A stretch of 64,000 bases of DNA from Candidatus Latescibacterota bacterium (GTDB taxonomy: Bacteria; Latescibacterota; UBA2968; UBA8231). Below, piece after piece: positions 1,306-55,563 of the stretch. A model generated the notes under the pieces. That model did not search any database, was not told the DNA's origin, and saw nothing but the letters and a program-made list of their open reading frames with translations. The position numbers and the translations under genes were made by a program. The stretch covers positions 6,464,001 to 6,528,000 of the forward strand of contig OZ241867.1 of assembly GCA_965203175.1 (NCBI GenBank). Direction: 5' to 3'. Position 1 is the first letter of the stretch. Each line of letters starts with the position of its first letter.

Positions 1306-3969
1306 CTAGTTCAGCCCTGCGTAAATCGTCACAAAGGATTCGTTGGTCGTCCGCGCCTTCTGCCCGGTGAACTGCTTGCGCTCCACCTTCATGCCGGTCA
1401 GGGCGCGGAGCTTGTAGCCGAGGTAGTTGGATTCATTGCTGAATTGAACGGCTACGGTCACCGCGTCGAAGTCGTTGGCGTCGGCGTCTAAGTCGTTGAA
1501 GATCGCGTACTCCACCCCGGCCTGGAGCTTGGTCACCTGCAAGACCTGCGTCTCCACCAAGCCCGAAAACAGCTCCATCAGGCTGGTGTGGCTGTTGAGC
1601 GACAGCAAGCTGCGGCTCTGCTTGCGGAACTCGCTCTTCCAGCGCGGCTCCAGCGACCACGCCCCGAGCTGTAAGCGATAGCTCGCTTTGTTGATCAGGC
1701 CGAAAAAGAAATCAGAAGGCGCCAGGCCGTATTTCTCCCGCTGGGCCTTTTCCATTTGCTGGTGAAAGTGGAGCCAGTGCATCTTGGTGGTCAGAAAGAG
1801 TGCCGCCACCTGTAGATTGTGGCCGACAAAGAGCTGGTTGGCCCAAGTGTCGCGCGCCAACAGCGGGTCCTCGACCTTGGTCAACTCGCCGCCGCGCAGT
1901 GTATTGTCCGGTGCCCACTGCAACAACGGGTTGGGAATGTCGTCTTTGACCAACTTACTCATCTCAAAGACTCGGAAGCGGCCCAGCCGCGGCGCATCGC
2001 GTTCATAGGTGAACATCAGGTAGTTGCTCTCGTTTTTGCGCGCCGAGGAAATCAGCCCCTCGCGCAGCGCACCCACCACCAAGCGCGCCCGCGGCGTGAT
2101 GTCGGCCCCGAGGTGGATGTTGAATCCCCGGTGATCCCGGCGATACGGATAATCCGGCTCCTCGTCGTTTTCGTATTGATCGACCCAAAAATTGTTGTTC
2201 ATATCGACGCCAAAGAGAAACTCGGGCCGATCGACGTAAAACCGCAGAAACGCCTCCTCATAGTCCGGCTCGGTATTCGAGCGCACAAACGTGTCATTTT
2301 GGTTGAAGTCGGGCACGAAGTCGTTGTTCTGATCCCAGCCCGGAAAAACCTGTTGATCGCCGCTGAGAAAGTCGAAGCGCACGTTGTCCGGGAATTTGTC
2401 CTGATCGTCGTTGTCATCGACCAAATCGACCAAGCCGCGCTCGTTGTCGTAGTCGAAGTCCCCAGTGCCCGAGGTGATAAAGGTCTGAGTATTGTAGCGC
2501 GGATCCATGCTGTAAAACTCGCCAAAGGCAAAGTAGGGAGCGGCCTTCTTGGACACGTTGACCATCCAAGCGGGAGCCGAGCGCCGGCCGCCGATCCCCG
2601 AGAATGCCTCGTGGGTTTCCGTGAGCACGTTGGGGTACTTCCGATAGCTCCAACTCAGGTCGTACTCACCGTACAAGTCGAAGCCCTGTAGGTCTTGCAA
2701 CTCGACGCTGCCGCCAAAGATGTGGGTCGCCGTCGGCAGGCCGTACTCAAAGCGAATGGTCTGCAAGTTGGTGATGTCCTGGACATTGCCCTCGGCCTGC
2801 GCGACGAGCAGCAAAACCTCCTGGCCGTCGAGGTTGATCTGGCGGTCCGAGGTCATCCAGACCTGATAGTCGTTGCCCAGCGTCAGCAGGAATTCGACCT
2901 TGGCGATTTCGTCCTTGGCAAAACGGGCGCGATCGACAAAATCCGGGCTGTCGAAATCGTACACGAGCCGCATCTCCTCCGGCCCGTTGGCGGCGACAAA
3001 GCCCTGCTGCAAGAAGCCACCCTCGATGATCGGCTCAAAGCCAATGGCCTTGCCTGATTCCTCCGAGCCGTCGCGATAGGTGATCTGCACGTCCGACGCA
3101 TCGGGAAAAAACGCCGCGCCGCCCACGCCGTCTTCGGGCGAGTCGTCGCGCAACACGAGCTTGACGAGCGAGATGGTTTTGTTCTGCCCGATGGTCAGCG
3201 AGCCAGCGAATGGGTTGCCGGCCTGCTTGTCGAGCAAGGTGTGCGACTGGTGGGCGTTGGCCGTGTGCAGCGCGACTTCGGCAAAGTCGCCAATCTGAGC
3301 TCCCAACCGTCCACCTGCCAAGATGGTGTTGTTCGTCCGCAGCACCTCGCGGTCCCCAGTCGAGCCGCCGCCGGGGTTGCTCAGCCGCGAAAACAAAAAG
3401 GTCGCTTCGTAGCGGTCGGTAGCCAGATCGAACTGCACGCCGTCCATGCGGGCCTTGGCAAACACCATCGGCGACAGCACCGAGCGCAGGCGGCTGCTCG
3501 CCGTCAAGGTGTAGAAGTACTGGCCCTTGTTGTCTTGCGCCACCACGACTTCGGAAAACCAGCTTTGGAAGCGGGAGGACTTAAACAGCACGTTGCCAAA
3601 CTGCTGGGGCTTGCTTTGCGAGTTGTTGAAAATCAGCCAGCCGCGCGTGAGGAAATTGCCGTACAGATCGTAGAAGTAATCGCCCTCCAAGGTCGTTTCC
3701 ACGTAGCGCTCATAAGGGTTGCGCGCATAGTTGGTGTATTCCCACTGCCGCCAATGGTACTCGCTGTACAGCTCCTGCGGCACGTACCAGCGGCGCACGG
3801 CCGGGTCGAGCGCGTTCAGGGCCACTCCGGGGCCTTGGGGCGCGAGGCTAGTCTGATCGCCGAGCTGTAAGCCCAAGCGCGTTCCGTACTGGCCTTGAGC
3901 GACAGCCGGCGCATCGACCGCGCTCCACAACATTAGGAGACCGCAATAAATACCGGTCTTTGGTCTCAA
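1306..3969 (-). CDS. Large secreted acidic protein, putative outer-membrane beta-barrel family (paralog A)
   Basis: Start moved to TTG 3969 (GGAGGT Shine-Dalgarno just upstream, then a signal peptide). Motifs DDSPED, GNVQD, VDDNDD, FPGxD, PDYxExFL and PDYPY are shared with the genes at 47322-55563. C-terminal third has alternating beta-strand-like residues. Confidence 0.75.
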   Translation of the reverse strand: MRPKTGIYCGLLMLWSAVDAPAVAQGQYGTRLGLQLGDQTSLAPQGPGVALNALDPAVRRWYVPQELYSEYHWRQWEYTNYARNPYERYVETTLEGDYFYDLYGNFLTRGWLIFNNSQSKPQQFGNVLFKSSRFQSWFSEVVVAQDNKGQYFYTLTASSRLRSVLSPMVFAKARMDGVQFDLATDRYEATFLFSRLSNPGGGSTGDREVLRTNNTILAGGRLGAQIGDFAEVALHTANAHQSHTLLDKQAGNPFAGSLTIGQNKTISLVKLVLRDDSPEDGVGGAAFFPDASDVQITYRDGSEESGKAIGFEPIIEGGFLQQGFVAANGPEEMRLVYDFDSPDFVDRARFAKDEIAKVEFLLTLGNDYQVWMTSDRQINLDGQEVLLLVAQAEGNVQDITNLQTIRFEYGLPTATHIFGGSVELQDLQGFDLYGEYDLSWSYRKYPNVLTETHEAFSGIGGRRSAPAWMVNVSKKAAPYFAFGEFYSMDPRYNTQTFITSGTGDFDYDNERGLVDLVDDNDDQDKFPDNVRFDFLSGDQQVFPGWDQNNDFVPDFNQNDTFVRSNTEPDYEEAFLRFYVDRPEFLFGVDMNNNFWVDQYENDEEPDYPYRRDHRGFNIHLGADITPRARLVVGALREGLISSARKNESNYLMFTYERDAPRLGRFRVFEMSKLVKDDIPNPLLQWAPDNTLRGGELTKVEDPLLARDTWANQLFVGHNLQVAALFLTTKMHWLHFHQQMEKAQREKYGLAPSDFFFGLINKASYRLQLGAWSLEPRWKSEFRKQSRSLLSLNSHTSLMELFSGLVETQVLQVTKLQAGVEYAIFNDLDADANDFDAVTVAVQFSNESNYLGYKLRALTGMKVERKQFTGQKARTTNESFVTIYAGLN

Positions 3970-4155: not shown

Positions 4156-7100
4156 TTAATATGCAACGGCTATGAGGTGGGTGCGGGTCGTCCCTCCGAC
4201 TCCTTCTGCATCCGCCTCTACTGTGATCTGACATAAGTACAACCCCGGCGGCACCACCTGCCCGGCCTCGTCCTTCCCATCCCACCTAAACTGCTGCGGC
4301 CCGCCGGTCACTAATCCCGTTAGCTGCCGCACCTGTCGTCCAGCCAGCGTGTACAGGTGGATGATCAACGGCCGCGCAGCCTGCACGCGGAACAGGGAAA
4401 AACCGATCTCCGCAGTCTCGTTGATCCCGTCGCCATTGGGGGTAAACGGATTGGGCGCGATGGCAATATCGTCGATGGTGGCCTGCGCCCCCTGCGCGCC
4501 AATCGACAGGCTCTTAGAAGGGCTCAGGGCGGTCGCGTCGCCCCCGTCGGCCACCTGCCAAGGCGTCGCGGGCTGGCTCTGCCGCACGGCGACCTGCATC
4601 CGCGTCCCTTGCAGGTACACCCGCCCTGCAAAGCGCACGCGCAACAGCCGGCCGCGGCCCACTATCCAACCCCGCTGACTGCCCAGCCGACCATAGGTCC
4701 GCTCGTCGAGGCTGTCGCCAGCCGCGTCAAAGGGCACCTGATCGCCTAACCCGACCACCTTGCGGAAGTAGCGCACCGGCCCCTGTTCGTCCGCGCTGAG
4801 TGCTTCGTAGTTCGCGGCGTCCACTTCGGCCAAACTACCGTCTGCCCCCCGCTGAAAGTAGCGCACTGCGCCCTGCTCGGCATCCGGCAAGAGGCTGTGC
4901 GAGGTAAAGGTCAACAGATTGCGATCCAATCCGGTGGGCACCTCGTCGCCGGGAAGGACCGACCGGTAGTACACGGGCGTGAGCACATCGTCCGGCGCCC
5001 CCTGCACAATCTGCGGGAATTCCAACCACAGCGAGTCGCCCTCGGAGTGTACCCTCAGCTCGTCGTCCCACTGGAGCGGCGCTCCGGCCAACAACTCGGC
5101 CTCGGAACCCATAGCCGCATCGACGAACTTCAGCGCAAACGACGGCTCCGCGTGCAAGAGCAATTGGTCGAAGCCCGGGCTGCGCACATTGGCCGGCTGC
5201 TGCAAAAAGTTGGGCTGTACGTAGAGCGCAAAGGTGTCGAGTACCCCGGCCTCAGCAGTAGTCGGCCACACCTCGGCCCGCAGGTGCTGAGCCACCGGCT
5301 GGTGGAACGCGACCGCAATGCGGTGCAGGGCCGCCGCGTTTTCACCGCTGCTTTTGAGGCGCGCTTGGATCTGCATGAAGCGCCGCAAGCCCGGCGAAGT
5401 AGCTAAGTCCCCGGGCTGCAAATAGCGCTGGCTCCACGGACTCCAACCCGGCCCCACCACCACGGTCGTGTCCGAAGGCCCCTTCAGAAAGCCGGCCAGC
5501 GTCCTGTACTCGTCCGCGGTCTTCTGGTTGCCAGTTTTGTCGAAATAGCGGATTTGCTGCAAAAGCTGGTCGCCGGTGCGGGTGCGGATCTCCACATCCG
5601 TGCCCTGGGGCGTGTTCGCCTCCCAGTGCACCTCACCCAAGCCCACCAACCCCGGCAGCTCGATCAGATCCGACTCCAGCACCACCTCGGCCGGTGCCCC
5701 CTCGGCGAGCAGCATGAACTCGTGATGATACGACCAGAACTGATTCATGTGGCCGGTGCCGCCCGGGCCGGTGGCCCTAAATCCTGGGGGTACGTGACCG
5801 AGGGTGACCAAGTCGAGGAAGCGAGTCAAAACTGGCGGGTTTTGAATGTCGGCGATATCGCGAAAGTTGCCGGTGAACACATTGCGCTCGCGTTCCTCCG
5901 GGTTGATGCGCTGCCACTTGAGATTGCCTTGAGCGTCGCGCTCGCCCGTGGAGGCGCGCATGATGTAGCCCCGGCTGCTGCCCACTAAGCGGGTCTGAGC
6001 CAAGCGCACAATGCCTCCCATATCTATGGTCAGCACGTTGGCGGTGGGGTTTTTCGGGTTGCGGATTTGGTGTGAGAATCCAGTGCCGGCGTCGCCGTCG
6101 AACGCAAGCAGCGTATTGGTCCCATCGGTCGTCAGCACGTACGAGCCGCCGTTTTCAATCAGGTTGATGCCCAAGTTGTCGCCCCAGCCGTGCGCTTTGA
6201 CTTCAGCTAGGCGCGGCAACTCGCGGCGGTAGTAATCCCGTCGCCCCTGGCGCTGCTCTTCTAGAGCCTGATAGGTGGCTTCGTCCACCGGCTCTTCGCG
6301 GCCGGCCACGTCGCGCGCGAAATAGACGATATCCCCGCGCTCTGCTTCCGGCAGTGCTTCCCACGCCTCTTGATCTATCTGTCCGGCCCGCCCGCCGCGC
6401 GTATCCGTGATGACGATGCGGATCGTCTCGATCTTGCGCCCAGTCCACTCGGGCGAGCGGTGCAAGCTCTCCGCGAGCTTCTTGTCGCTGACCACGCCAG
6501 TGGCCGGGGGCAGTTCGGGGCTGGTGTGCTCGCTTTCAAAGATGTATTCGCGCTGCGTGGTATTGGGCGCGTCTTGCGGGATGAAGAGCTGGAAGCCAAT
6601 GCGGCTGTTCGGCTCGTGCAGCAGCGCACTCTGCCGGTCCGACAGCAGCATGATGAAGCGCAGGAAGGGATCTCCGAGTGCCTCATCGACAAACTGGAAC
6701 TTGAGCCGCTCCACCGGCACCACTCTTCCCAAGTCCACCTCGATCCACCACTGCTCGATGGGATCGCGCGGGTCCGGCTCCCAGAACGTGGTCGGATCGC
6801 CGTCGAGAATATTGGCCGCGAGCCGCGGATTGGACCCCACTCGGCTGATACCCGGCCGCACCCAATAGTCAAAGACCAGCTCGTTGAGCGTATTCCGTAT
6901 CGGCTCGCCAAACACGTCGAACTGCATGGTGCTGTCGATGGTGCCGATGCGCGGCTCGGGCTTGCTGATGACGATCGGACGCTTGAATCCGGGATCATCT
7001 AGGACGTTGAAGACCGTCCGCAGCGAATGCGCCCGCACCGAACCGTCCTCGTGGATGCGCGCCAGATGAGTGGGAATGGACCACTGCTGCCAGTGGCTGG

Positions 7101-7212
7101 CCCGCTCAACTACGACTTCGTCACCGGCGATCTGATAGCCCGACTGGGCCTCGGCCAATACCCAACTCAGCGCTAGGCCGACGAGGATCTGCACGGCGAA
7201 GTGGCTCTTCAT
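4156..7212 (-). CDS. Large secreted protein with discoidin-like domain(s) and C-terminal FlgD-Ig/CHU_C-like domain
   Basis: Signal peptide; ILDGDPTTFW...WWIEVDLG discoidin-like motif; C-terminal NPFTPNGDGIN...WDGKDEAGQVVPPGLY...IAVAY. Confidence 0.8.
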   Translation of the reverse strand: MKSHFAVQILVGLALSWVLAEAQSGYQIAGDEVVVERASHWQQWSIPTHLARIHEDGSVRAHSLRTVFNVLDDPGFKRPIVISKPEPRIGTIDSTMQFDVFGEPIRNTLNELVFDYWVRPGISRVGSNPRLAANILDGDPTTFWEPDPRDPIEQWWIEVDLGRVVPVERLKFQFVDEALGDPFLRFIMLLSDRQSALLHEPNSRIGFQLFIPQDAPNTTQREYIFESEHTSPELPPATGVVSDKKLAESLHRSPEWTGRKIETIRIVITDTRGGRAGQIDQEAWEALPEAERGDIVYFARDVAGREEPVDEATYQALEEQRQGRRDYYRRELPRLAEVKAHGWGDNLGINLIENGGSYVLTTDGTNTLLAFDGDAGTGFSHQIRNPKNPTANVLTIDMGGIVRLAQTRLVGSSRGYIMRASTGERDAQGNLKWQRINPEERERNVFTGNFRDIADIQNPPVLTRFLDLVTLGHVPPGFRATGPGGTGHMNQFWSYHHEFMLLAEGAPAEVVLESDLIELPGLVGLGEVHWEANTPQGTDVEIRTRTGDQLLQQIRYFDKTGNQKTADEYRTLAGFLKGPSDTTVVVGPGWSPWSQRYLQPGDLATSPGLRRFMQIQARLKSSGENAAALHRIAVAFHQPVAQHLRAEVWPTTAEAGVLDTFALYVQPNFLQQPANVRSPGFDQLLLHAEPSFALKFVDAAMGSEAELLAGAPLQWDDELRVHSEGDSLWLEFPQIVQGAPDDVLTPVYYRSVLPGDEVPTGLDRNLLTFTSHSLLPDAEQGAVRYFQRGADGSLAEVDAANYEALSADEQGPVRYFRKVVGLGDQVPFDAAGDSLDERTYGRLGSQRGWIVGRGRLLRVRFAGRVYLQGTRMQVAVRQSQPATPWQVADGGDATALSPSKSLSIGAQGAQATIDDIAIAPNPFTPNGDGINETAEIGFSLFRVQAARPLIIHLYTLAGRQVRQLTGLVTGGPQQFRWDGKDEAGQVVPPGLYLCQITVEADAEGVGGTTRTHLIAVAY

Positions 7213-7313: not shown

Positions 7314-8948
7314 CTACCAATCCACCAAGACGGCGACTTGGTCTTTGTACTTATCCTGCAACTGGCGGATAAACGCGCCAATCCGCTCGTTTTCTCGCTG
7401 GCGGCGCAAGCTCGCAGCCGCCCGGCGGCGCGCCTCGGCAAAGGGCTGGATCTGGCCACCCTCCCGCCGCAGCACCCGGAACACCGCGTACCCGTCCATG
7501 CTCTCTAGCGGGCCGACGAGCGCGCCGATCTCAGCGGCAAAGGCCGCTTTTACCAGCTCGGGATAGCGCGGCTCGTACAGGCGCACTAGGCGCATCTCCC
7601 AGCCGTGCTCGCGCACCCCGTGCCCCTCGACGCCAGCGTGCGAGCGCACGCCGGGCCGGTCGAGCAGGTCGGCAATGGGCGCGCCAGCCTCCCACTCGGC
7701 GCGCAAAGCCGCAGCGTCCTCTTCCTCCGCGGTCCACAGCTCGTGGACGATCACGGCCTCTTGGGTGCGGTAGCGGTCCTTGTGAGCCTCGTAATGCGCT
7801 CTGATCTCGTCCTCGCTGGGCGCGGCCCCGGCCGTGGCCTGTTGGAAGAGCTGATTGAGAATCAGTGCTCGGCGCTGGTGCTCGCGCCACTCCTCAAAGG
7901 CCGCTTCCTTGATCCAGCCGCGCTTGCGCGCCTCGGCCTCGAAGAGCCGCACCGGCAGCAGCAAGCGCCCAATCCGCTCGGCGGCCTGGGCCTTGTCCTG
8001 CAATACGCCCTGTGCTCCAACCGCCTGCAGGCTGCCCAAACCCTCGGCCACGCTGATTGTGCCGCCTTCGTACGCGTAGAAGGGGTGATTCAACTCGTCC
8101 GTCGTCAGGGGCCGGTCCAAACTCTGGAGCAAGATGGCCTCGCCTGCTGGATCTAAGCGCGCGTCGTAGCGAAAGCGGAGGCGTTCGAATTCCTCTTCCT
8201 CCTTCTCCCGCGTCCGTTCCTTGCGCAGCCGCTCGGCCACTTCCTCGCTGTAGTTGGCGAGCGAGGCCGGGCGATCCTCGACAAAGCGGAAGATTTGATA
8301 GCCACCGGCTAACCCGACCGGCTCAGCTATCTCCCCAACGGGTAAACCCACAAAGACGGCGGGCGAGATGGAGAACCGCCGCGCAGCTTGCGTGCGTCCG
8401 ATCCAGCCGACCAGGCCGTCGCCCTGTGCGGCGAAGAGGTCGTTGGCGGCAAAGCGCGCGGCCACTTCCTCAAAGGGCTGGCCTTCGCGCAGGTCGCTCC
8501 CGACTGCCTCTAGCTCCTCCCGGGTGCGCACCAAGATGCGACTGAAGAGCCGCTCGCGGTCAAACCCCATCTCTGCGAAGGCGCGCTCGACATCTGCGGC
8601 TGTGATCTCCACCTGCGGCACAATAACTTGGGCGCGGTAGCGCTCCACGAGGCGCTGCCGCACCATTTCGCGGAGCTGGTGCTCAACCGCCAAGCTGGTG
8701 TCGATCCCAAGCGAGCGCGCCTCGGCGAACATCAGTTCCTCGTCGATCATCGACTGCAAGTGCTCCCGGTCGGCTTCGCGCCCTTCCTTGGGACTGCGCA
8801 ACCCCGGTGGCAGACGCTCGACAAAAGCCGCAAACTCCGCCTGCTCAATCTCCACCTCGCCGACCCGAGCGACGATGGTCTCGTCCTCGCCGCACCCCAT
8901 TAACAACAGGGCCAGCACACCGCAAAACTTACTCGATAAATAGCGCAT
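7314..8948 (-). CDS. Parvulin-type peptidyl-prolyl isomerase / PrsA-SurA-like lipoprotein
   Basis: Lipobox LMGC; IVARVGEVEI and LQSMIDEELMFAEARSLGID SurA-N-like segment; two parvulin-like segments (FEEVAARF...GEIAEPV...GYQIF; GALVGPLESMDGYAVFRV). Confidence 0.85.
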   Translation of the reverse strand: MRYLSSKFCGVLALLLMGCGEDETIVARVGEVEIEQAEFAAFVERLPPGLRSPKEGREADREHLQSMIDEELMFAEARSLGIDTSLAVEHQLREMVRQRLVERYRAQVIVPQVEITAADVERAFAEMGFDRERLFSRILVRTREELEAVGSDLREGQPFEEVAARFAANDLFAAQGDGLVGWIGRTQAARRFSISPAVFVGLPVGEIAEPVGLAGGYQIFRFVEDRPASLANYSEEVAERLRKERTREKEEEEFERLRFRYDARLDPAGEAILLQSLDRPLTTDELNHPFYAYEGGTISVAEGLGSLQAVGAQGVLQDKAQAAERIGRLLLPVRLFEAEARKRGWIKEAAFEEWREHQRRALILNQLFQQATAGAAPSEDEIRAHYEAHKDRYRTQEAVIVHELWTAEEEDAAALRAEWEAGAPIADLLDRPGVRSHAGVEGHGVREHGWEMRLVRLYEPRYPELVKAAFAAEIGALVGPLESMDGYAVFRVLRREGGQIQPFAEARRRAAASLRRQRENERIGAFIRQLQDKYKDQVAVLVDW

Positions 8949-16399: not shown

Positions 16400-16441
16400 C
16401 AGGCACCTCGATTAGGTTCGGCTACTTAGCGGCGAATCCGT
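16397..16441. repeat. Junction repeat copy (DUF2442 stop, RBS and hsdR ATG)
   Basis: Matches 12219-12260. Confidence 0.85.
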
Positions 16442-16741
16442 ATGCAAATCCTCGTTCTTCTGAGGCTCTTTCTCTGGATTCATCCATGCGGGAAGAGGGG
16501 TTCCTGTAGCTTCCGCATACAAGGTCGCCGGTGCTATGTCGATCTCGTTGCCCCAGGTCAGAACGCCAAGCTCCTTGTTGATAGCGAAGCTCTGAAAGAA
16601 CTCGAGATTCCTGAATCGCTCAAAGACACCTCGACGCTCCAAATACTTTGTGAAATCAATGGTTCCGCACTGGCCGTTATCGAATCCTAACTCGATCAGA
16701 TAGCCACCCTGATAGATAGCAGAAACAACGTCGTGTAGCAT
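16412..16741 (-). CDS. DUF2442 domain protein (antitoxin-like)
   Basis: YLIELGFDNG...IDF...GVFERF...FF...GVLTWGNEIDIAPATLY; AAGGAG Shine-Dalgarno. Confidence 0.85.
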   Translation of the reverse strand: MLHDVVSAIYQGGYLIELGFDNGQCGTIDFTKYLERRGVFERFRNLEFFQSFAINKELGVLTWGNEIDIAPATLYAEATGTPLPAWMNPEKEPQKNEDLHTDSPLSSRT

Positions 16742-16761
16742 ACGGCGCTCCTTATCTCTAC

Positions 16762-16965: not shown

Positions 16966-16996
16966 TTTATAGGACGCGAAAGAGATTTCCTTACAA

Positions 16997-33073: not shown

Positions 33074-34261
33074 TCAGTCGGGCTCCGCCTCCGCGAATTC
33101 GACAAAACAGGTCGCCACAACCTTGTCGCGCCCAGGGGTAGGAGTCTGAACTCCAGCAACCGAATCCGCAACCGCACGCAGGTCAAGGCTAGCCGAGGGC
33201 CGCAAGCGCCAGCGTTTGACCTGCTCGACCAGACAATCGCCCACGGAGTCACTGTCCACGGTCGAAGCGAGAAGCTGGACACTTTCGACTAGACCACTAG
33301 CCAAGATGACAAAGCGGATGGTTGCACTGCCCGGCAACGCCCGACCGGCTTGGAATTCACCGGCAAAGCAGCGGTTGAACGCGTCGAGTCGGGAGCGGAC
33401 AAACGCATCAATGGTCTCCGGCGCGCGCGCCAAATCGTCTGGAGCATAGCCACTCACCTCGCTAGGTGCCTGCAAGCGCGCCTGCGTGGTAGCGAGTACA
33501 GCTTCTGCTCGGGTCCGATCAACCAATGCCGCTTGCTCGATCTGGCGGACAAAGCGAAAGTCCATGTCAAAGGTCTGCAAGGGCTGGTCAAAGGCATTGA
33601 ATTTGAGAATGAAATCCCGGATGTGTAAGCGCACCTCTTCCACCCCGTCGGCCAGCGGCTCAAAGACGATAAAGCCGCTGTAGTTTTCGCCTTTGTAGAT
33701 TTTCTCCCCAACGCCGTAATTGCTGGTGCGCACCTGCCCCATGCGCATGTCAAAGCGATAGTCCTCATTGCCAGTGACGCCCTTCCGAGCGCGGTAGTAA
33801 GATTCAAAACTATGAGCCGCCGAGCCGGTCGCTATGCCGTAGGGAGTCAGTTCCTCTCCCCGGCGGTTGGTCGTGAGCCGGCTCTGCAGCGGTTGTAGCT
33901 CCACCTTGGGAAAACCCAGATTGTACACGGAGACCGCAAAAACCGTAAAGCGATTGCGCACGTACCCCGTCTGGGGATCGACGTAGTCGCCATACGTATA
34001 GGCATTGTACGAATGCGGCCCCTGAGAGGACTCCTGCGGCCACAAAGCATTTAGGGCGCGGTCGGTCATGTAGCGAACCTCGACCCGCAGTCCCTCCACG
34101 GCATAGACGACAGTCCCATCCTCTCCCAGAGTATAGTCCGGCCCTAGATCGGAGCGAGGCATCAGCAGCGATACGCGCTCGTAGCGCGGCGGATAGAGGA
34201 TGGTGCAGCCGGCAAACAACAAGACACTCCATACCGCGTGGACAGCAAACGAAATGCGCAT
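33074..34261 (-). CDS. Lipoprotein with C-terminal AgmX/PglI (TonB-C-like) domain
   Basis: Lipobox FAGC; C-terminal FNRCF...GSATIRFVILASGLV...VGDCLVEQVKRWRL; paralog of 46190. Confidence 0.8.
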   Translation of the reverse strand: MRISFAVHAVWSVLLFAGCTILYPPRYERVSLLMPRSDLGPDYTLGEDGTVVYAVEGLRVEVRYMTDRALNALWPQESSQGPHSYNAYTYGDYVDPQTGYVRNRFTVFAVSVYNLGFPKVELQPLQSRLTTNRRGEELTPYGIATGSAAHSFESYYRARKGVTGNEDYRFDMRMGQVRTSNYGVGEKIYKGENYSGFIVFEPLADGVEEVRLHIRDFILKFNAFDQPLQTFDMDFRFVRQIEQAALVDRTRAEAVLATTQARLQAPSEVSGYAPDDLARAPETIDAFVRSRLDAFNRCFAGEFQAGRALPGSATIRFVILASGLVESVQLLASTVDSDSVGDCLVEQVKRWRLRPSASLDLRAVADSVAGVQTPTPGRDKVVATCFVEFAEAEPD

Positions 34262-34265: not shown

Positions 34266-35489
34266 TCAGCGCGCCTGGTTGTAAAAATCGATTTGCTGCT
34301 GGGCGATGGAGCCCTTCTGCGTCAGGGCAAAGACCACCATATTGACTCCCAGTTTCAGGTGCGGTTCGTTTTCGCTTTCGCGTTCCCAGAAGGCACCGTA
34401 CCCCTTGTCGGAATACACCGCCACCAGTCGGTCGCCGAGGAAAATGCCCTCCAAGTAGTACACCGAACTGCGGAAATTGCCCCCGGACAATTCCTCGCCT
34501 CCAGGGGGCGGGCCATCGTCAAAGTCGAAAAATACGTGGTAGAGCGGATGCTCGTTGGGAATGGGAACAAAGCGGGCGTCGCGGCCTAGGGCCTGCTTAA
34601 ACATGTCCCGCAGCGAGGCTTCGGCCGGGCCGTACTCCAGCTCGGGCCGGTCATTGTCGGCTACCAGGAACCCGCCGTTGCGCAGGTACTTGCCCAGATT
34701 GTCAATTTCGTGCTCGGTCAGTTCAAACGCGCTGCGGGTAGTGATGTACACAAAGGGGGCCTTGAACAGATCCTGGGAGTCGATAAACATCTGGTCGATG
34801 ACCCGGGCCTCAATGCGAGTGTACTGGTTGATGGCCCGCACCAACTGGGAAATCGAGCGCTGGCGCGAAGGCTGGAGGATGCTGCCCCAAGCCAGCCCCA
34901 AGTACACAAAGCCCTGGATGTTGCGCTTGTCGGCCGGATCCTGAATGACCATGCCCCGGTACTTGCCGGTGTCAATGGCGTCCAAGTCGAGGAATTCCGC
35001 CTGCATGTCAATGCGCTTTTCCGGCTCCTTCAGACTGGTCATTTCAACGGCTTCGAACTGGGGGACGCCCACCACCCCAAGACCCATGCCTTGGACACCC
35101 ATGTCGGCGATAAAGTCGTGGCCGCTGCGGGTGCGACTCCAACGCCGACCCGCGACAGCCTGATCTAGCTGAGCACCCAAACCACTGAAGCCACCCACCA
35201 CAGTGGCCGTCTGATCCCGCTGCACGGAGATAATAGGGGTACCCTCGGGAATGACCTGCTTTTTAAAGGCGAATTCCCGGCTCAACTGAGGGGGAGGAAT
35301 CAGCAGCGGCGTGTCCAATTCCTGCCATTCGAGGCGGATGGCGACCTCTTCCTCGGCCTGTTCAACGGGCCGAAAGTACAAGGCGACAAAAACCAAGTGC
35401 AACACTAGGGAGATCAGCAGGCCCCAGTAGAGCAAGCGCCGATTGGCCGCAAGAACGGCGAGCGGATCCGAGGAGCGCAAGGCTTTCAC
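34266..35489 (-). CDS. DUF4159 domain protein with N-terminal TM anchor
   Basis: SLVLHL TonB-like TM; YLRNGGFLVADND...HPLY...LEGIFLGDRLVAVYS...LGVNMVVFALT. Confidence 0.85.
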   Translation of the reverse strand: MKALRSSDPLAVLAANRRLLYWGLLISLVLHLVFVALYFRPVEQAEEEVAIRLEWQELDTPLLIPPPQLSREFAFKKQVIPEGTPIISVQRDQTATVVGGFSGLGAQLDQAVAGRRWSRTRSGHDFIADMGVQGMGLGVVGVPQFEAVEMTSLKEPEKRIDMQAEFLDLDAIDTGKYRGMVIQDPADKRNIQGFVYLGLAWGSILQPSRQRSISQLVRAINQYTRIEARVIDQMFIDSQDLFKAPFVYITTRSAFELTEHEIDNLGKYLRNGGFLVADNDRPELEYGPAEASLRDMFKQALGRDARFVPIPNEHPLYHVFFDFDDGPPPGGEELSGGNFRSSVYYLEGIFLGDRLVAVYSDKGYGAFWERESENEPHLKLGVNMVVFALTQKGSIAQQQIDFYNQAR

Positions 35490-38400
35490 AAGTGTTTCCT
35501 CGCAATGGTGGCGCGTCGACGTTCGACAAAGGCGCGGATGTTGGGGGCGAGCAGGCTGCTGTCTTCCCGGGCCGCGCTCAGAATGGCGTCAAACACGTCC
35601 ACAGCCCGTTGCCATTCCCCTAACTTTTGATGGCAGACCCCGATATTGGCCCGGGCGGCTATACCGCTGGAGGTATGCGGGAATTGACGCCACACTTGTT
35701 CAAAGCGGGGAATTAGGGCGCGAATCGCCTCGGCGTCGCTGAGTTCGGACGCGGCTTTGAGGCTGTCGGTCAACGCCGCGTAATCTCCGTAGGCCACAGC
35801 CTCGCGCAACTCGGGCAACGCGGTGGCGGCCTGAGCGGCAGCCGGAGTGCCGGGGTATTGTTCTTCGATTTGGCGAAAGAGGTCGTACGCCGCTTGGTGG
35901 TCGCCTTGATTGTACAACAGCTCGCCGAGAGTATAGCGGGCAATGGCCGCATAGCGGCCCTCGGGAAAGCTTTCGAGGTACGCCGCAAAGGCCCGTTGCA
36001 CCTCTTTATTTTTCTGGTCCGCATCCCCAGAAAGGGAATTCATCAGACACCAGCCAATGTTGTAGAGAGCTTCCTCGGCCAAGGGGCTATGGGGATAGCG
36101 GTCAATGAGCTGCTGGTACTGGCCCTGAGCCTGATCGTACTGCTGCAGATTATAGCGGCATTCGGCTAGTCGAAAGAGAGCATCTGGGGCAATGTTGTGG
36201 TCCGGGGCCTGGGCCACGACGAACTCAAAGGCAGCCACGGCCTGGGCAAAAAGAGTCTGATTGAAGTACGCGTATCCCAAGTAGTAGTGGGCTTCCGCGG
36301 CGTTGGGGTGTTCCGGGTAGCGAGTGATCGAATCCTGCAAGCGGCCGACCGCCTCTTCGTAGCGGTCCAGTTGCAGGGCGGCCAGTCCGCCCAAGAAGAG
36401 AAAATCGGGCGCGTAAAATCCACTCGGGTACGCCGCCAGACCCGCAGCCGCGGCGTCGGCCACGGCTTGGTAATCTTCCAAGCGCAAGGCGGCGTCGGCC
36501 ATGAGCCAGTAGCACTTTTCGCGCAGATAGTAGGTGCGCTCTAAGGGCCGCTCTTCTTCGGCAAAGTCGAGGGCGAGCAGTTCCCGGCAGGTGGCAATGG
36601 ATCGGCCGTAGCGCTCTTGGCGGTAGGCGATTTCGGCCAAGGCCAGCAAGTACTCGCCGCGTTGGAACGGAGAGGAAGCCGTCTGCAGTAAACGTCGATA
36701 TAGCTGCAATCCTTGTTCAATGCGCCCACCGGCGATATAGGCCGCAGCCAACAGACGGGAAGCCGCTGTCAGGGACGAATCTGCAGCGGCGCGCTCTAGA
36801 TCGGCGATGGCTTGGGCGTGCTGACCGAGCCTGAAATAGGCCATGCCCCGGCCGTAAAAGGCTTGGTGGACAAAGGCCGAATCCGCAGCGGCTAGGGTTT
36901 GGTCAAAGTAGGGTAGGGCCGCATCGAGGTCGCCGACGCGAGACAGAGCCGTGGCGATGAGATAATTAAACAGCGTTTGAGAATCCCTAGCAGTCTCGGT
37001 TTGAGTACCTTCCCGCAGGACGGCCAACGCCCGTTGGAAGCGCCCCTGCTGCTGCAGGAGGCGACCCGCTTCGAGTCGGGAGCGCGAGAAAATTTCTGCC
37101 TCGCCACGGACCTGGAGAAAGGAGGCGACCGCCTCCTCCCAAGCGCCGGCATCGCGCTGGGCTATGGCCGCTTCAAAGCGGGCGATATCCGCTTCGGGTT
37201 TGTCGCCCAACTCTTCCTCTAAGCTCTGGTAGATCTGGACGGCATCCGCGTACTCGCCGCGGCCGTGGAGGATGCGGGCGCACTGGAAAAGGGCGCTGTT
37301 TCGGTACCCACCAGCCTGCGACGAGGTCGCCAACGCCTGGAAAATGTCGAGGGCCTGATCGGTAGTAGCCGCCTCGTTCTGGCGCTGCAAAGCCAGCCCC
37401 AAATTGAAGCGCAGGTCCATTTCGTAGGTCGAGTTGGGAAAGGCTTCTAAGGTGCGGCGCAATTCCGCTTCGGCGCGGCGGAAAAGATCGGCCCGCTCCT
37501 CGGGCGCGACTTCTCCCGCTTCGGCGCGGCCGAACCAAGCCTGGGCAATTTGCAGTCCCACCCCTTCGAGGGGTAGGCCGGCTTGAGCCGCAAAAGCGGC
37601 ATAGTCGTCGCGGTACGCGCTGTATTCGCGCACGGCCTCTAGGTAGTTCCCAGTTTCAAAGTAGCGGTTGGCCAGCAGCAATTGCAGCCGCGCCCGGCCA
37701 AAGTCGTCCTGTTGCGCTTCTAGGGCGCGCTGGTACACCGCGATACTCGCGGCGACATCGCCGCGCTGGTAGTGCAACTGAGCCTGGCGCAAATAGGCTT
37801 CCTCGGACAGGCGACGCTCGTCGGCAAAGCGCGCGGCCACCACGGCATAGGCCTCCACGGCCAGCGCGTGATCCCCAGTGCGCTCGCGGCACTCGCCAAT
37901 GCGCAGTAGGGCTTTGGCCGCAATCTCCAGCTCGGTCTCGTCGACTAGGCCGGCGAGTTTGTTGCGCTGCATGCGCAAAATCTCGCGCACGGACATGCGG
38001 TCGAGGCGCTGCGAGTCGACTAGCCGCTGGTAGTTGGGGATGGCTTCGGCAAAGCGCTCCAACGCAAAGTAGCATTCGCCAATTTGAAACAGCGCCCTGC
38101 TGGTGCGATACCCCAAGGGGAAACGCCCGACCAAATCCTCAAAAACCGCAATGCTTTGGACGTACTCGCCCAGTTGATAGTGCGACCAGCCAATATCGTA
38201 CAGCGCATGAGCTACATAGGGACTAGTGGGATATCTGGCGACTAGCTGCCGCGCTTCGTCGATGGTGCGGCGATACTCTCCCATGCGGTACGCGCAGGCC
38301 ACAGCGCGGCTGCGGGCGAGGGCCTGGAGCACCGGAGTAGCGGAGAGGGTCTCGGTGGCGACAAACGCCTCCACGGCCTGTCCCAATAAGTCGTCGGCCC

Positions 38401-38740
38401 GACTCTGGTGCTGGACGCGCGTTTCGTCGCTGCGGGCCTGCGCCGCCCTTTTGAGTTCTTCTTCGCCCATTTTGAAATAGGCATTGCCAATTTGGTACGC
38501 GGCCACTTCTTGCAGGGGCGCGTCTATTTGGCCGACGGAAACTCGAATGGCCTCCATCGCGAGCAATTTGTGCCGACTGCGCATGATGTGGCGATAGTTT
38601 TCAATGGCCTGATCGTAGGCCCCAGAGGCGTAGAAATTCTGGCCGTGCTCAAAGCGGGCCTGCATCTCCTCGGCCGTGGGCACAAAGCGAGTCGCAGCCG
38701 CGGCGAGAGTCAGTAGAGATAGGATGGCTAACGGCAGCAT
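35486..38740 (-). CDS. Giant secreted TPR protein (YbgF/BamD-type repeats)
   Basis: Signal peptide; many repeats of the YPxSxxAxxALYxIG type over 1084 aa. Confidence 0.88.
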   Translation of the reverse strand: MLPLAILSLLTLAAAATRFVPTAEEMQARFEHGQNFYASGAYDQAIENYRHIMRSRHKLLAMEAIRVSVGQIDAPLQEVAAYQIGNAYFKMGEEELKRAAQARSDETRVQHQSRADDLLGQAVEAFVATETLSATPVLQALARSRAVACAYRMGEYRRTIDEARQLVARYPTSPYVAHALYDIGWSHYQLGEYVQSIAVFEDLVGRFPLGYRTSRALFQIGECYFALERFAEAIPNYQRLVDSQRLDRMSVREILRMQRNKLAGLVDETELEIAAKALLRIGECRERTGDHALAVEAYAVVAARFADERRLSEEAYLRQAQLHYQRGDVAASIAVYQRALEAQQDDFGRARLQLLLANRYFETGNYLEAVREYSAYRDDYAAFAAQAGLPLEGVGLQIAQAWFGRAEAGEVAPEERADLFRRAEAELRRTLEAFPNSTYEMDLRFNLGLALQRQNEAATTDQALDIFQALATSSQAGGYRNSALFQCARILHGRGEYADAVQIYQSLEEELGDKPEADIARFEAAIAQRDAGAWEEAVASFLQVRGEAEIFSRSRLEAGRLLQQQGRFQRALAVLREGTQTETARDSQTLFNYLIATALSRVGDLDAALPYFDQTLAAADSAFVHQAFYGRGMAYFRLGQHAQAIADLERAAADSSLTAASRLLAAAYIAGGRIEQGLQLYRRLLQTASSPFQRGEYLLALAEIAYRQERYGRSIATCRELLALDFAEEERPLERTYYLREKCYWLMADAALRLEDYQAVADAAAAGLAAYPSGFYAPDFLFLGGLAALQLDRYEEAVGRLQDSITRYPEHPNAAEAHYYLGYAYFNQTLFAQAVAAFEFVVAQAPDHNIAPDALFRLAECRYNLQQYDQAQGQYQQLIDRYPHSPLAEEALYNIGWCLMNSLSGDADQKNKEVQRAFAAYLESFPEGRYAAIARYTLGELLYNQGDHQAAYDLFRQIEEQYPGTPAAAQAATALPELREAVAYGDYAALTDSLKAASELSDAEAIRALIPRFEQVWRQFPHTSSGIAARANIGVCHQKLGEWQRAVDVFDAILSAAREDSSLLAPNIRAFVERRRATIARKHL

Positions 38741-44480: not shown

Positions 44481-46190
44481 TTACAACCCGGCAACATTGC
44501 CCTGCGTCCGGCGCACCGCAAGCCCCTGTCCCTCGGTGATCACCAGCCACTGGTCGGCGTCGAGATCGCGAAATTCCTCGACCCGGCCGCCGGGCCAGCG
44601 CACCACTAGCCGCTCGACTTTGGTGGCCCGTTGCAACCCGAAGTGAGCGCGGATGTCGCTGTGCGACAGGAAGCTGGTCCCCGCGACAATTTGGCGAATC
44701 TGGACGCCGGCGGCGACCACGGCCTCAATGCGAGCCCCAATGCCGTCCCGATTGCTCGCGGTGCCAATGAGGGAGACCTGGAGCCAGTGATTGCGGTTGC
44801 CGCCGTCGTTGCGCAACAGGGTGGGCGTATCGTCGATATTGAGGATGAGGATGTCGATGTCGCCGTCGTTGTCGTAGTCGCCAAAGGCCGCCCCCCGGCT
44901 CACCTTTTCCACGGCCAAGCCGCTGCCGGCCTGGGTACCAATTTCAACGAAGGAGCCGCTGCCGTCGTTGTCAAAGAGAAAATTGCGTTGGGCGTACCGC
45001 GTGCCCACATCGTAGTCGTCCAAGACCGGATAGACATGGCCATTGGCGGCGAATAGATCCAAATCGCCGTCGTTGTCGCGATCGAAGAAGCCCGTGCCCC
45101 AACCCACGAAGGGCATGCTCACCTCGCCCACGCCCACCGCGTGGCTCACATCGGTAAAAAGGCGTCCTCCTTCACTGCGGTACAAGGTGTAGTAATCCTC
45201 GGAGAAATGGGTGACGAAAAAGTCGCAATCGCCATCGTTGTCGTAGTCGCCCGTGGCCACGCCCATGCCGGCTTGTTCCTCGCCATCGGCGCTGTGGCTG
45301 GCACCCGTGGCCAAGGAGACATCTTTGAAGCGCCCATTGCCCAAGTTGCGCAAGAGCAGATTGGGATCGGTGTCGTTGGCCACGTACAGATCCAGGTCCC
45401 CATCGCTGTCGCTATCGACAAATACGGGTTGGAACCCGTTGTACGCCACCGGACCAACGCCGATCTGAGCGGTAACATCCTCAAAGGTACCATCGCCTCG
45501 ATTGCGGTAGAGCACGTCCTGTTCTCCCTCATAGGCGTTGGGTCCTTGGAATATCTTGATCCCCTTCCACAACTGATAGAGATCGGCTTCGTCGAGTTCG
45601 TCTGGATTAAAGCGGACAAAATTGGCCACGTACAGATCCACATCCCCGTCCACATCGTAGTCGCCCCAAGCAACGCCCGTGCTCCAGCGCGGATCCGCCA
45701 CCCCCGCAGCGTGGGCCACCTCGTCAAAGGTCCCATCGCCCTGATTGCGGTAGAGCCGGTTGGGTCCATAGTTGGTTGCCAAAAGGTCGGTGTCGCCGTC
45801 GTTGTCGTAATCCGCGGCCCCACAACCCATGCTCCAAGCCGTGTCGCCCACGCCAGCCGTGCGAGTGACATCGGCGAACGTGCCATCGCCCCGGTTGCGG
45901 TAGAGCCGGTTGCCGGGCGGGGGATCGGGCAGCGGCTCGAAGGAGGAGCCATTGATTAGGTATGCATCTAGGTAGCCGTCGTTGTCGTAGTCGAACAGAC
46001 CCGCGCCGCCGCCCTTGGACTCAATGATATAGGTCTTCTGCGGCTTGCCCGAGACATTGCGCCCATGCAGGCCGGCTTGTTGGGCCACATCGACAAAGAC
46101 CACCCGCGGCGGTGTAGCCTCTTCACCGCACCCGAGCAACAGCAGGCCCGCGCCGCCCAGCGCGCAGTACAAATTTCGCTTTCCAATCAT
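44481..46190 (-). CDS. CRTAC1-family (FG-GAP repeats + ASPIC/UnbV) lipoprotein
   Basis: Lipobox LLGC; repeated DYDNDGDxD motifs; SNRDGIGARI...HFGL...VRWPGG UnbV domain; TGATG overlap. Confidence 0.92.
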   Translation of the reverse strand: MIGKRNLYCALGGAGLLLLGCGEEATPPRVVFVDVAQQAGLHGRNVSGKPQKTYIIESKGGGAGLFDYDNDGYLDAYLINGSSFEPLPDPPPGNRLYRNRGDGTFADVTRTAGVGDTAWSMGCGAADYDNDGDTDLLATNYGPNRLYRNQGDGTFDEVAHAAGVADPRWSTGVAWGDYDVDGDVDLYVANFVRFNPDELDEADLYQLWKGIKIFQGPNAYEGEQDVLYRNRGDGTFEDVTAQIGVGPVAYNGFQPVFVDSDSDGDLDLYVANDTDPNLLLRNLGNGRFKDVSLATGASHSADGEEQAGMGVATGDYDNDGDCDFFVTHFSEDYYTLYRSEGGRLFTDVSHAVGVGEVSMPFVGWGTGFFDRDNDGDLDLFAANGHVYPVLDDYDVGTRYAQRNFLFDNDGSGSFVEIGTQAGSGLAVEKVSRGAAFGDYDNDGDIDILILNIDDTPTLLRNDGGNRNHWLQVSLIGTASNRDGIGARIEAVVAAGVQIRQIVAGTSFLSHSDIRAHFGLQRATKVERLVVRWPGGRVEEFRDLDADQWLVITEGQGLAVRRTQGNVAGL

Positions 46191-47317
46191 CAGTCGCGTC
46201 CGTCGATAAATTCCAAGTCGCACTCGGCGACTGTGCGGCCCTCTGCAGGTGCAAACGTCCACCGCTCTATCTCAGAGCGGACACAGGCATCCACCGCCGC
46301 GCTCACTACCCCCGAATCGACGATTTCCACCGCTGCCACAGCACCGGTCGGGTCGATGGTAAAGCGGACTTTCATCCGTCCTGCAGCCGCGCGACCAGCG
46401 GCAAATTCGCGGGCGAAACAGGCGTTGATATCCGTCAGGCGATCTTGCAGTTCGCCCTCGAGCGCGCTAGCCGCCCGCGTCGGATTCCCGGCTGCGCCGC
46501 GATCTAGCTGTAGCGGGCCACCTAGCCGGGTATAAGTAACAAGCCCACTCAGGGACTCATCCCGCTCTCGCTCGACGAGTTCCCGCTGCACCTCGCGCTG
46601 GAACTCAAAGCGCAGAGTAGTAGTTTCCAACGGCGCGTCGTGGGGATTGAATTTGAGGACGAAGTCGCGCAGCACCAAGGCGACTTGCGCCACCTCGTCG
46701 GCGAGCGGATCAAAGACGATCAAACCTCGGTACGACTCGCCTTTGAAAATTTTGCGGTCGATGTTGTAGTTGTTGCTGCGCACAATGCCCATGCGCATGT
46801 TGAAGCGGTAAAAATCATTGCCGCTGGGGCTCCTGCGGGCGCGGTAGTACGACTCAAAGTTCCTAGGCGACGAACCCGCCAAAATGCCGTAGGGCTGGAG
46901 GAATTCGCCGCCCCGATCCGTCAGCAGCACGGCCTTGAGGGGGTTGAGTTCCACTTTGGCAAAGGCGCGGTTGTGCACCTCGATTTCAAAGACGGTAAAG
47001 CGATTGCGAACATAGCCAACCGTCGGATCGACATAGTCGCCAAAAGTGTAGGGATTGATCGAGTACTCTCCCTGGCTCGACTCTGTGGGGAACATGGCGT
47101 TGAGTTCCGAGTCGCTCAGGTGGCGAACCAAAAGCCGCAGGCCTTCTATGGTATAGGAGACGGCCCCGTCGCTCTCTAAAGCGTACTGGGCCGAGGCCGC
47201 AGACATAGGCAGCAGCCGGGAGACCTGGACGATTTGCTGAGGGTAGAGCAAATGGCAGCCACAGGCCAAGAGCCAGAGTCCGGCCGCACAAAAACCTATT
47301 TTTTTATTCGTCAACAT
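46190..47317 (-). CDS. Lipoprotein with C-terminal AgmX/PglI (TonB-C-like) domain
   Basis: Lipobox-like LACGC; GDYVDPxxGYVRNRFTVF shared with 33074; INACF...GRMKVRFTIDPTGAV...VDACVRSEIERWTF. Confidence 0.8.
   Translation of the reverse strand: MLTNKKIGFCAAGLWLLACGCHLLYPQQIVQVSRLLPMSAASAQYALESDGAVSYTIEGLRLLVRHLSDSELNAMFPTESSQGEYSINPYTFGDYVDPTVGYVRNRFTVFEIEVHNRAFAKVELNPLKAVLLTDRGGEFLQPYGILAGSSPRNFESYYRARRSPSGNDFYRFNMRMGIVRSNNYNIDRKIFKGESYRGLIVFDPLADEVAQVALVLRDFVLKFNPHDAPLETTTLRFEFQREVQRELVERERDESLSGLVTYTRLGGPLQLDRGAAGNPTRAASALEGELQDRLTDINACFAREFAAGRAAAGRMKVRFTIDPTGAVAAVEIVDSGVVSAAVDACVRSEIERWTFAPAEGRTVAECDLEFIDGRD

Positions 47318-55563: not shown

Follow-up and report, generated by a model that had tools for sequence, protein, structure and literature searches.

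The window analysed here is a stretch of 64,000 nucleotides (positions 6,464,001 to 6,528,000 of contig OZ241867.1) from a Candidatus Latescibacterota bacterium. Its minus strand carries four related open reading frames (ORFs), one at the window start and three in a tandem triplet, whose stop-free translations measure 924, 938, 914 and 895 aa for the copies beginning at positions 1306, 47322, 50135 and 52876, respectively (Table 1). We refer to the barrel family represented by these four genes as F and to the family of partner genes upstream of them as c0. A first-pass annotation of the sequence had described the four proteins as acidic, secreted and devoid of recognisable annotation, with a common series of motif blocks and an aromatic alternating last strand, and these descriptions hold. 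The four are true paralogs with 24–33% identity; in a full-length alignment the other three are 25, 29 and 28% identical to the 1306 copy, with approximately 90 invariant columns. The alignment confirmed the blocks YDxxGxxxxxG, DDSPxD, NDY, GNVxDxSN..FEYG, VDDNDDxD, FPGxDxDxDG, PDYxEPF, DxNxNG..D..E.D..PDYPY and N.S.Y.GY.L in their proposed order, whereas the WSxRxxxGD..FTxLTLD block is found in three window copies and deviates in the copy at 1306.

Across the 62 copies that the genome turned out to contain (see below), the median isoelectric point is 4.94 (range 4.51–6.75), the highest value belonging to the window copy at 52876. Signal-peptide-like N-termini are readable in copies 47322, 50135 and 52876, and the true start of the 1306 copy probably lies downstream of the listed TTG. 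At E ≤ 1, Pfam returned nothing for three of the four window copies and one chance-level match (E 0.28) for the fourth; no window copy matched an NCBIfam model, and a profile of the four F proteins had no match among all PDB chain sequences at E ≤ 10. The F consensus ends in sF[IV]T[IV]YAGL[EDQ], an alternating aromatic strand of the beta-signal type. Outer-membrane barrels usually carry a terminal aromatic residue in the last strand, and a terminal Phe is present in only 3 of the 62 copies.

The copy at 50135 was modelled with AlphaFold2 from a 42-row alignment (mean predicted local distance difference test, pLDDT, 75.2; predicted TM-score, pTM, 0.77). Outside two inserts the model contains 23 antiparallel strands of 8–18 residues, with short low-confidence strands at residues 89–107; counted from the C-terminus, turns of 2–5 residues alternate regularly with longer loops. 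Because a barrel requires an even number of strands and the model shows 23 long ones plus short N-terminal ones, we predict a barrel of about 24 strands, its closure being taken from fold matches. A Foldseek search against the PDB gave E-values down to 2e-8 and only outer-membrane barrels among the top matches, the best being Deinococcus SlpA, MtrB, LptD, FrpB, CymA and SprA, at query-normalised TM-scores of at most 0.25 and sequence identities of 7–12%. VIA-align 2, which is independent of Foldseek, ranked D. radiodurans SlpA (7zgx_A) first, with a Z score of 13.4 over 422 aligned residues, and 49 of its 50 listed entries were membrane barrels as judged from their titles. The further structural neighbours after SlpA were MtrB, LptD, TonB-dependent transporters, PapC, PgaA-type and PelB channels, and SprA. 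AlphaFold2, Foldseek and VIA-align 2 therefore agree on the outer-membrane beta-barrel that had been suggested from the sequence, and the predicted fold class is clear, yet no single family is singled out.

The beta-sandwich thought to be inserted into the barrel was recovered as an eight-strand insert (residues 221–404; pLDDT mostly 85–93) between two barrel strands, and an Asp-rich segment (residues 484–618) lies between two others. By strand parity, both inserts and a long loop (residues 683–725) face outward. The first-pass annotation had seen no plug, Omp85 or autotransporter signature, and none appeared in Pfam or NCBIfam: at E ≤ 1 the four window copies matched neither POTRA/Bac_surface_Ag, the autotransporter beta-domain, LptD and Usher models of Pfam nor the plug (PF07715) and barrel (PF00593) of TonB-dependent transporters. 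Similarly, F matched none of PF11751, TIGR03519 and NF033709 (PorP/SprF, PorV/PorQ), and no SLH or other wall-binding domain was found in it with Pfam and NCBIfam. On the strength of these models and searches, F appears to be an undescribed family of large, plug-less outer-membrane beta-barrels, with about 24 predicted strands and an outward sandwich insert.

The Asp-rich region had been likened to thrombospondin type 3 repeats. The likeness stands at the level of motifs but not of profiles, as neither the Pfam TSP_3 nor the EF-hand models matched any of the four copies at E ≤ 1. EF-hand loops follow the 12-residue consensus D-x-[DN]-x-[DN]-G-x-[ILV]-[DSTN]-x-x-E. In the modelled copy, DFDNNGIIDHRE agrees with this consensus at 7 of 7 defined positions, with little or no variation at any of the seven among the 42 aligned sequences, and DLDQDGQPDPNE agrees except at position 8. 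Judging from these motifs, the acidic region with its EF-hand-like loops probably binds calcium. Among the 62 paralogs, conservation peaks in the Asp-rich region and over the first 20 residues of the mature protein (0.66–0.79 per 20-residue block) and is lowest in residues 261–320 and 361–380 of the sandwich insert, residues 481–520 and the loop at 681–720. A conserved acidic region beside variable outward loops would be expected if a constant partner or gate were combined with varied ligands.

The four window genes had been taken for a four-member family, a figure that proved far off. When the alignment of 42 relatives was searched against the source genome (a single 6.58-Mb contig), 73 match rows were obtained, which a family hidden Markov model (HMM) run over the ORF list resolved to 62 intact full-length F genes of 861–1049 aa, among them nine tight tandem pairs and three triplets. 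The window accounts for 4 of the 62, a fifth lies 5 kb before the window start, and at roughly 2.7 kb per gene the family takes up ~2.5% of the genome. The related proposal that F is expanded in this lineage was correct, but far too modest for 62 copies and a distribution over several phyla. With the four-sequence profile we found 976 proteins at E ≤ 1e-3 and 313 at E ≤ 1e-30 among 1.84 billion 50%-identity representatives; the 39 closest relatives had no Pfam domain and were named only "hypothetical protein", one of them being labelled Candidatus Latescibacteria. Within the phylum, F was matched in 71 of 121 sampled genomes, including 40/40 of the window's own family (f1) and none in families f2 (0/29), f3 (0/13), f4 (0/2) and f8 (0/5). 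A scan of one genome per GTDB species yielded 643 confirmed stretches, the best 72 of which were kept for comparison. Record titles of these 72 loci were mostly Latescibacterota; other labels were Gemmatimonadota, Kryptoniota/Thermokryptus, Ignavibacteria, KSB1, Zhuqueibacterota, Zipacnadia and Bacteroidota, with a single metagenome-assembled genome labelled Myxococcales.

To describe the genomic context, genes were called by a greedy longest-ORF rule and six neighbours per side of each F gene were clustered. The largest cluster, c0, has 111 members with a median length of 720 aa, which contain discoidin (F5/8 type C) domains and a C-terminal domain matching CHU_C and FlgD_ig. If one reads upstream along the strand of an F copy, the first gene of 200 aa or more that is not itself F belongs to c0 in 56 of the 62 cases, and all 62 copies have a c0 gene within six genes. 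Within the same distance, 42 copies have a SurA-like peptidyl-prolyl isomerase (PPIase; c3, 31 members), 41 a secreted protein of ~310 aa (c4, 30 members), 24 a DUF6785+DUF6784 protein (c5, 20 members) and 14 a lipoprotein of ~260 aa with an invariant lipobox Cys (c6, 10 members). Two c4-like proteins in other loci match CBM9_1; profile searches of PDB sequences and Pfam with c4 and c6 proteins gave nothing meaningful. Tetratricopeptide repeat (TPR) and FG-GAP/ASPIC proteins also recur around F loci, and an eight-gene cassette, c3-c0-F-TPR-c0-c0-F-c4, occurs four times, one occurrence spanning the window start. The DUF6785+DUF6784 protein, of 660 aa, is found at L001:1218-3203 and in 19 other places of the source genome; both domains probably represent integral-membrane families, and the protein may be the inner-membrane step of the pathway. 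No literature on DUF6785 was found.

The modelled c0 protein (pLDDT 89) consists of five or six beta-sandwich domains in a row; in fold searches it matched carbohydrate-binding or macroglobulin-like modules of larger proteins and nothing else, and no enzyme core was among the matches. The c0 paralogs differ in their N-terminal heads and conserve the two stalk domains as well as the C-terminal domain. A c0 HMM matched 232 genes of the source genome, comprising the 111 near barrels, ~60 further full-length genes and a remainder with the C-terminal domain only; some of the barrel-distant copies form tandem arrays of 4–7. A complex prediction combining the first triplet barrel (residues 24–895) with the C-terminal domain (residues 584–708) of the upstream c0 scored 0.00 in a run without controls and carries no weight for or against contact between the two. 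Contigs from four RNA libraries (four studies), 90–99% alike, cover 24–25 of 30 bins of the c0-F-F stretch, a weak hint that close relatives express these genes, with DNA carry-over as a possible source. Sequencing runs containing just minor portions of the stretch were left out of any habitat assignment.

The pairing extends to the relatives, as c0 lies upstream of F in 55 of the best 72 loci kept from the scan (hand count). A longer operon in the order c0, small barrel, F, TPR, ExbB, ExbD, DUF4159 is present in one Kryptoniota locus (L022), one KSB1 locus (L034) and one Ignavibacteriaceae locus (L041), with products of about 570 aa for c0, 302–324 aa for the small barrel, 887–996 aa for F and about 1040–1055 aa for the TPR protein. 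Zhuqueibacterota locus L049 reads F-TPR-ExbB-ExbD-DUF4159, without c0 or small barrel, and other Ignavibacteria-type loci consist of c0, a PorP-like gene, F, a c6 gene fused to DUF4159, and DUF5683. The gene of 302–324 aa exceeds the Pfam PorP_SprF cut-off in 4 of the 8 loci bearing it (23.9–35.8 bits) and also matches the PorV/PorQ and PorP/SprF models of NCBIfam below their cut-offs. By NCBIfam, the TPR protein contains four YbgF/CpoB-like modules (210 bits), and the ExbB and ExbD proteins are nearest to TolQ and TolR, below cut-off. In all five whole genomes searched from these other operon-bearing lineages, F is single-copy. A subgroup of ~1000-aa barrels without a c0 match within 6 kb (L031, L046, L055, L058, L059, L062 and L063, the last with three in tandem) comes from genomes labelled Latescibacterota and Gemmatimonadota and may use another partner.

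The source genome itself contains five homologues of the giant TPR gene (TPR-1085), whose assignments were upheld by Pfam. Four of the five loci contain or adjoin F, two of these carry ExbB-ExbD-ExbD, and all three F triplets fall within them. At L076, c0, a PorP-like gene, F and TPR are followed by ExbB-ExbD-ExbD; at L077, an F triplet and TPR are followed by DUF4159, c6 and ExbB-ExbD-ExbD; and at L079, TPR with DUF4159 and c6 precedes c0-F-F-c0-F. A fourth homologue is that of the window. Its TPR protein aligns end to end with the Ignavibacteriaceae TPR protein (E 7e-78), as does the adjoining DUF4159 protein with its Ignavibacteriaceae equivalent (E 2e-34), and the part of the window from 33 to 61 kb is one of four F-containing loci of the TPR/motor type in the genome. 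The other ~50 F genes form c0-F satellites that carry no motor genes themselves. A Pfam PorP_SprF search of the source genome gave nothing, and likewise nothing in the control genomes; phmmer with the PorP-like proteins of other phyla found three relatives (E 1.4e-12 to 8e-26 by query), one of them directly upstream of an F gene. DUF4159 was detected in 120 of the 121 sampled genomes, so its presence is uninformative as a co-occurrence marker. It has 1–2 copies in most f2/f3 genomes (one has 4) and 4–23 in most, not all, F-bearing genomes, a comparison of little weight since related genomes are not independent. All sampled genomes but one also encode a highly conserved stand-alone DUF4159 copy of ~230 aa, and the only literature found on this domain was the Pfam paper.

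Table 1. Barrel genes and associated features of the window (T9SS, type IX secretion system).
Feature	Position	Strand	Remarks
TPR protein, 348 aa	259..1305	-	Directly downstream of barrel 1306; same place in 4 cassette copies
Barrel copy F, 924-aa ORF	1306..4080	-	Part of recurrent 8-gene cassette running off window start
c0 partner, 1018 aa, F5/8-type-C and T9SS-type C-terminal domain	4156..7212	-	Directly upstream of barrel 1306
SurA-like PPIase, cluster c3	7314..8948	-	
395-aa protein, C-terminal AgmX/PglI/TonB_C-like domain	33074..34261	-	NF033768 48.6 bits, cut-off 40
DUF4159 protein, 407 aa	34266..35489	-	Counterpart of conserved operon's last gene
Giant TPR protein, 1084 aa, four YbgF/CpoB-like modules	35486..38740	-	Counterpart of TPR after barrel in other phyla
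c0 partner, 693 aa	38758..40839	-	Heads TPR-DUF4159 part
c6 lipoprotein, lipobox Cys, C-terminal AgmX/PglI/TonB_C-like domain	46190..47317	-	Directly downstream of triplet; NF033768 57 bits, cut-off 40
Barrel copy F, third of triplet, 938 aa	47322..50138	-	
Barrel copy F, second of triplet, 914 aa	50135..52879	-	Modelled copy
Barrel copy F, first of triplet, 895 aa	52876..55563	-	
c0 partner, 708 aa	55646..57772	-	Directly upstream of triplet; modelled: beta-sandwich string, discoidin, divergent T9SS C-terminal domain
TolB-like PD40 beta-propeller, 351 aa	57816..58871	-	TIGR02800 335 bits, cut-off 343
Second c0-cluster protein, 607 aa, clear type A T9SS sorting domain	58945..60768	-	

Several other features of the window deserve mention. 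Close to the triplet (40836-44215 and 62756-64000) are genes for a 251-aa protein with an FGE-sulfatase domain, an 875-aa GDSL-lipase/TPR protein and a sulfatase, whose clusters recur by other barrel loci with 6, 5 and 5 members; these recurrent neighbours hint at sulfated substrates, and the T9SS ring protein GldK/PorK adopts the FGE fold as well. FG-GAP/ASPIC (CRTAC1-like) repeat proteins are encoded at 23613-25721 and 44481-46262, with similar ones adjoining many barrel loci, and the former carries a type A T9SS sorting domain (genome positions 6487634-6487864). Two neighbouring paralogous type I phosphodiesterase/nucleotide pyrophosphatase genes (679 and 715 aa) occupy 27354-31470, followed on the plus strand by a 500-aa ORF without family match (31569-33071). 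Finally, positions 12490-23522 form an island of lower GC content (0.51–0.56 versus about 0.60) with a type I restriction-modification system (HsdR 13208-16399, HsdS 17652-18908, HsdM 21304-22866), whose genes are interleaved with those for Fic, DUF2806, a RiboL-PSP-HEPN-like protein and a metallopeptidase resembling YgjP; the whole is probably a mobile island with a role in defence.

The source genome encodes a type IX secretion apparatus: a single SprA, a PorU sortase (632 bits) whose gene has a PorV-like neighbour, and sorting domains of type A that number ~100. In c0 proteins encoded next to F, the C-terminal domain scores under the cut-off of the type A and of the type B T9SS model alike. 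SprA_N is found in 113 of the 121 phylum genomes, including 28/29 of f2 and 13/13 of f3. As F was not found in these two families, we rejected the idea that F is a core T9SS component. TonB-dependent transport is present as well, the PF07715 plug model having matched 32 places elsewhere in the genome.

How might F work? The interpretation we favour, tentatively and at a little under an even chance, is that F acts as an energised gate through which substrates bound by c0 are taken up, resembling SusC and TonB-dependent transporters in role without belonging to them. In Latescibacterota the c0-F module is multiplied dozens of times and motor genes are few, and it is this combination of few motors with many receptors, variable c0 heads and variable barrel loops, the signature of TonB/SusCD systems, that leads us to read F as an energised gate. 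The parts of such a system would be c0, with variable discoidin or carbohydrate-binding-module-like binding heads on a conserved stalk, F itself, a PorP/SprF/PorV-like small barrel, a giant YbgF-like TPR protein, an ExbB/TolQ-ExbD/TolR proton motor, proteins with TonB/TolA-like C-terminal domains and the DUF4159 protein. Surface c0 would capture polymeric substrates, for example glycans or glycoproteins, the neighbouring F would move these or their fragments across the outer membrane, and the shared Tol/Ton-like motor would supply the gating energy. From the family, its fold class, copy number, gene partners and conserved operon we infer this putative F–c0 contact, energy coupling, and direction and nature of transport, together with calcium binding.

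A number of observations weigh against this interpretation. F has no recognisable TonB box or plug, its conserved N-terminal ~75 residues (41–116) are modelled at low confidence (pLDDT 33–46), and canonical TonB-dependent transporters already number about 30 in this genome. The ~60 further full-length c0 genes are more than 10 kb from any F, and the c0:F ratio ranges from 3:1 to 1:2, so c0 needs no cognate F. Among the related loci compared, 17 of 72 lack a same-strand upstream c0, five of these ending at a contig edge. The remaining TPR-1085 locus of the source genome, L078 (3049001-3062000), has a PorP-like gene, TPR, ExbB, ExbD and DUF4159 and no F, which implies that the motor set can exist without it; L078 also encodes a CBM9-like protein, and no F gene lies within 19 kb. 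Glycoside hydrolases are few at F loci, where the genes seen nearby encode FG-GAP/ASPIC, sulfatase, FGE-like, GDSL and phosphodiesterase proteins. Lastly, the parts list of a Tol-like motor, TonB-like proteins, TPR proteins, barrels and an adhesin equally recalls gliding and adhesion machines.

The strongest competing explanation is one that we consider unlikely though well worth keeping in view: F would be a surface platform that anchors or moves c0 adhesins with the help of a Tol-like motor, as in SprB/SprF of Flavobacterium gliding or the Agl-Glt machine of Myxococcus, nothing passing through the barrel. In its favour, the small barrel between c0 and F passes the PorP_SprF cut-off in 4 of 8 loci, c0 lacks an enzyme fold, the c6 and 395-aa proteins bear AgmX/PglI C-terminal domains with GltG as second-best match, and PorP-like barrels from adjacent genes are known anchors of type B C-terminal-domain cargo (PMC9143113). 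Anchoring does not need a 24-strand barrel with ~60 diversified paralogs, however, the known anchors PorP, PorQ and PorV being small barrels; c0 and F do not occur 1:1, with ~60 c0 genes lacking a nearby F, and where a PorP-like barrel is present it is a separate gene, so that F must have another role. Transport in the opposite direction was also considered, with F as an export channel that releases or inserts c0, a polymer or a lipid-linked molecule in the manner of an usher, LptD or Oar. Oar is a Ton-energised barrel able to export protein (PMC6434023), the structural neighbours of F include LptD, PapC, PgaA-type and PelB channels and SprA, and 42 of the 62 F copies have a gene for a SurA-like chaperone no more than 6 genes away. 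We nevertheless regard export as improbable, since c0 has T9SS sorting domains and the genome encodes SprA, PorU and a PorV-like protein, which already give c0 an export route; moreover, no polysaccharide-synthesis genes were found in the loci scanned, and sixty parallel exporters would be unusual.

Marginally less probable still is a passive structural porin or envelope tether like Deinococcus SlpA, the conserved neighbourhood reflecting mere co-regulation of surface proteins. SlpA is the best structural match (Z 13.4) and F is without plug or TonB box, but Pfam and NCBIfam detected no SLH or other wall-binding domain, and neither 62 diversified copies nor a motor operon across four phylum-level lineages would be expected of such a protein. 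That F is simply a very divergent TonB-dependent transporter seems hardly credible. FrpB, FptA, BtuB and SusC do appear among the weaker structural matches and ExbB/ExbD genes are part of the operon; on the other hand, Plug and TonB_dep_Rec are undetectable at E ≤ 1, F has a predicted ~24 strands rather than 22 with TM-scores of at most 0.25, and hhalign of the 62-copy F profile against a profile of 22 TonB-dependent transporters from the same genome gave a probability of 0.5%.

Several known systems invite comparison with F. Like the TonB/SusC-SusD systems of Bacteroidota, it comprises large barrels with dozens of paralogs and an adjacent surface binding protein, served by few ExbB/ExbD loci and variable in their outward parts. 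It differs in having no plug or TonB box, no sequence or profile similarity, about 24 predicted strands, a sandwich insert on the extracellular side and an acidic region with EF-hand-like loops, and its partner is a T9SS beta-sandwich cargo whereas SusD is a TPR lipoprotein. We also considered whether F might correspond to the P. gingivalis barrel PG0534 (PorF), of which a review states that it models on the TonB-dependent transporter FptA (PMC5445135). With PorP/SprF and type B cargo the F loci share a cargo gene immediately upstream of the barrel and a divergent C-terminal domain with a FxPNGDGxND-type start; F is, however, three times larger and has no PorP_SprF match, and in other phyla a separate PorP/SprF-like gene is present. 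Tol-Pal and the Agl-Glt system of Myxococcus offer the TolQ/TolR-like motor, AgmX/PglI-type C-termini, a YbgF-like TPR protein, a TolB-like propeller and barrels. Unlike them, the F loci show no Pal or OmpA partner and their TPR protein is ~1085 aa long with several YbgF-like modules; conversely, Tol-Pal and Agl-Glt lack an F-type barrel, T9SS cargo and massive paralogy. SlpA (30 strands), MtrB and LptD (26) and PapC (24) resemble F in their wide lumens and lack of a TonB plug, and some barrels of this class hold a partner protein or domain inside, but their accessory domains and operon partners are not common to F. Finally, Fibrobacter succinogenes has a cluster, FSU_2396-2403, encoding OmpA, two TPR proteins, ExbB, two ExbD and TonB, of which the TPR-TPR-ExbB-ExbD-ExbD-TonB part is cellulose-induced and proposed to drive cellodextrin uptake (PMC6851124). 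It shares the combination of TPR and ExbB-ExbD-ExbD in an organism from the Fibrobacteres-Chlorobi-Bacteroidetes (FCB) group with the F loci; the paper names no partner barrel (PMC6851124).

A more ambitious extension of the energised gate, which we hold to be possible and rather unlikely, is that F proteins are the receptors of a third outer-membrane import system driven by the proton motive force, beside TonB-dependent transport and specific to the FCB group. Binding proteins that reach the surface by type IX secretion would pass substrates to a 24-strand gate, plug-less and stabilised by calcium, which a Tol-like motor would open via the giant TPR protein and AgmX/TonB-like adaptors, and the ~60-fold multiplication of receptors would be the Latescibacterota counterpart of polysaccharide-utilisation loci. 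Our literature search, with most subscription journals and supplements outside its scope, found no description of the F family or its operon. The family, its architecture and the link to type IX cargo appear to be new; familiar are the fold class and the notion of receptors coupled to a motor.

Latescibacterota and their relatives, widespread bacteria without cultured members, break down organic matter in the sea, in sediments and in sponges; for uptake, a 2015 genome study of Latescibacteria assumed unspecific porins (PMC4454575). Given a share of ~2.5% of the genome, the pairing with c0 and a motor operon in at least four phylum-level lineages, F is a strong candidate for uptake or attachment machinery in these organisms. 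If the proposed role is true, it would connect type IX secretion with an energy system of the Tol/Ton kind, and the F family would serve annotators as a new marker.

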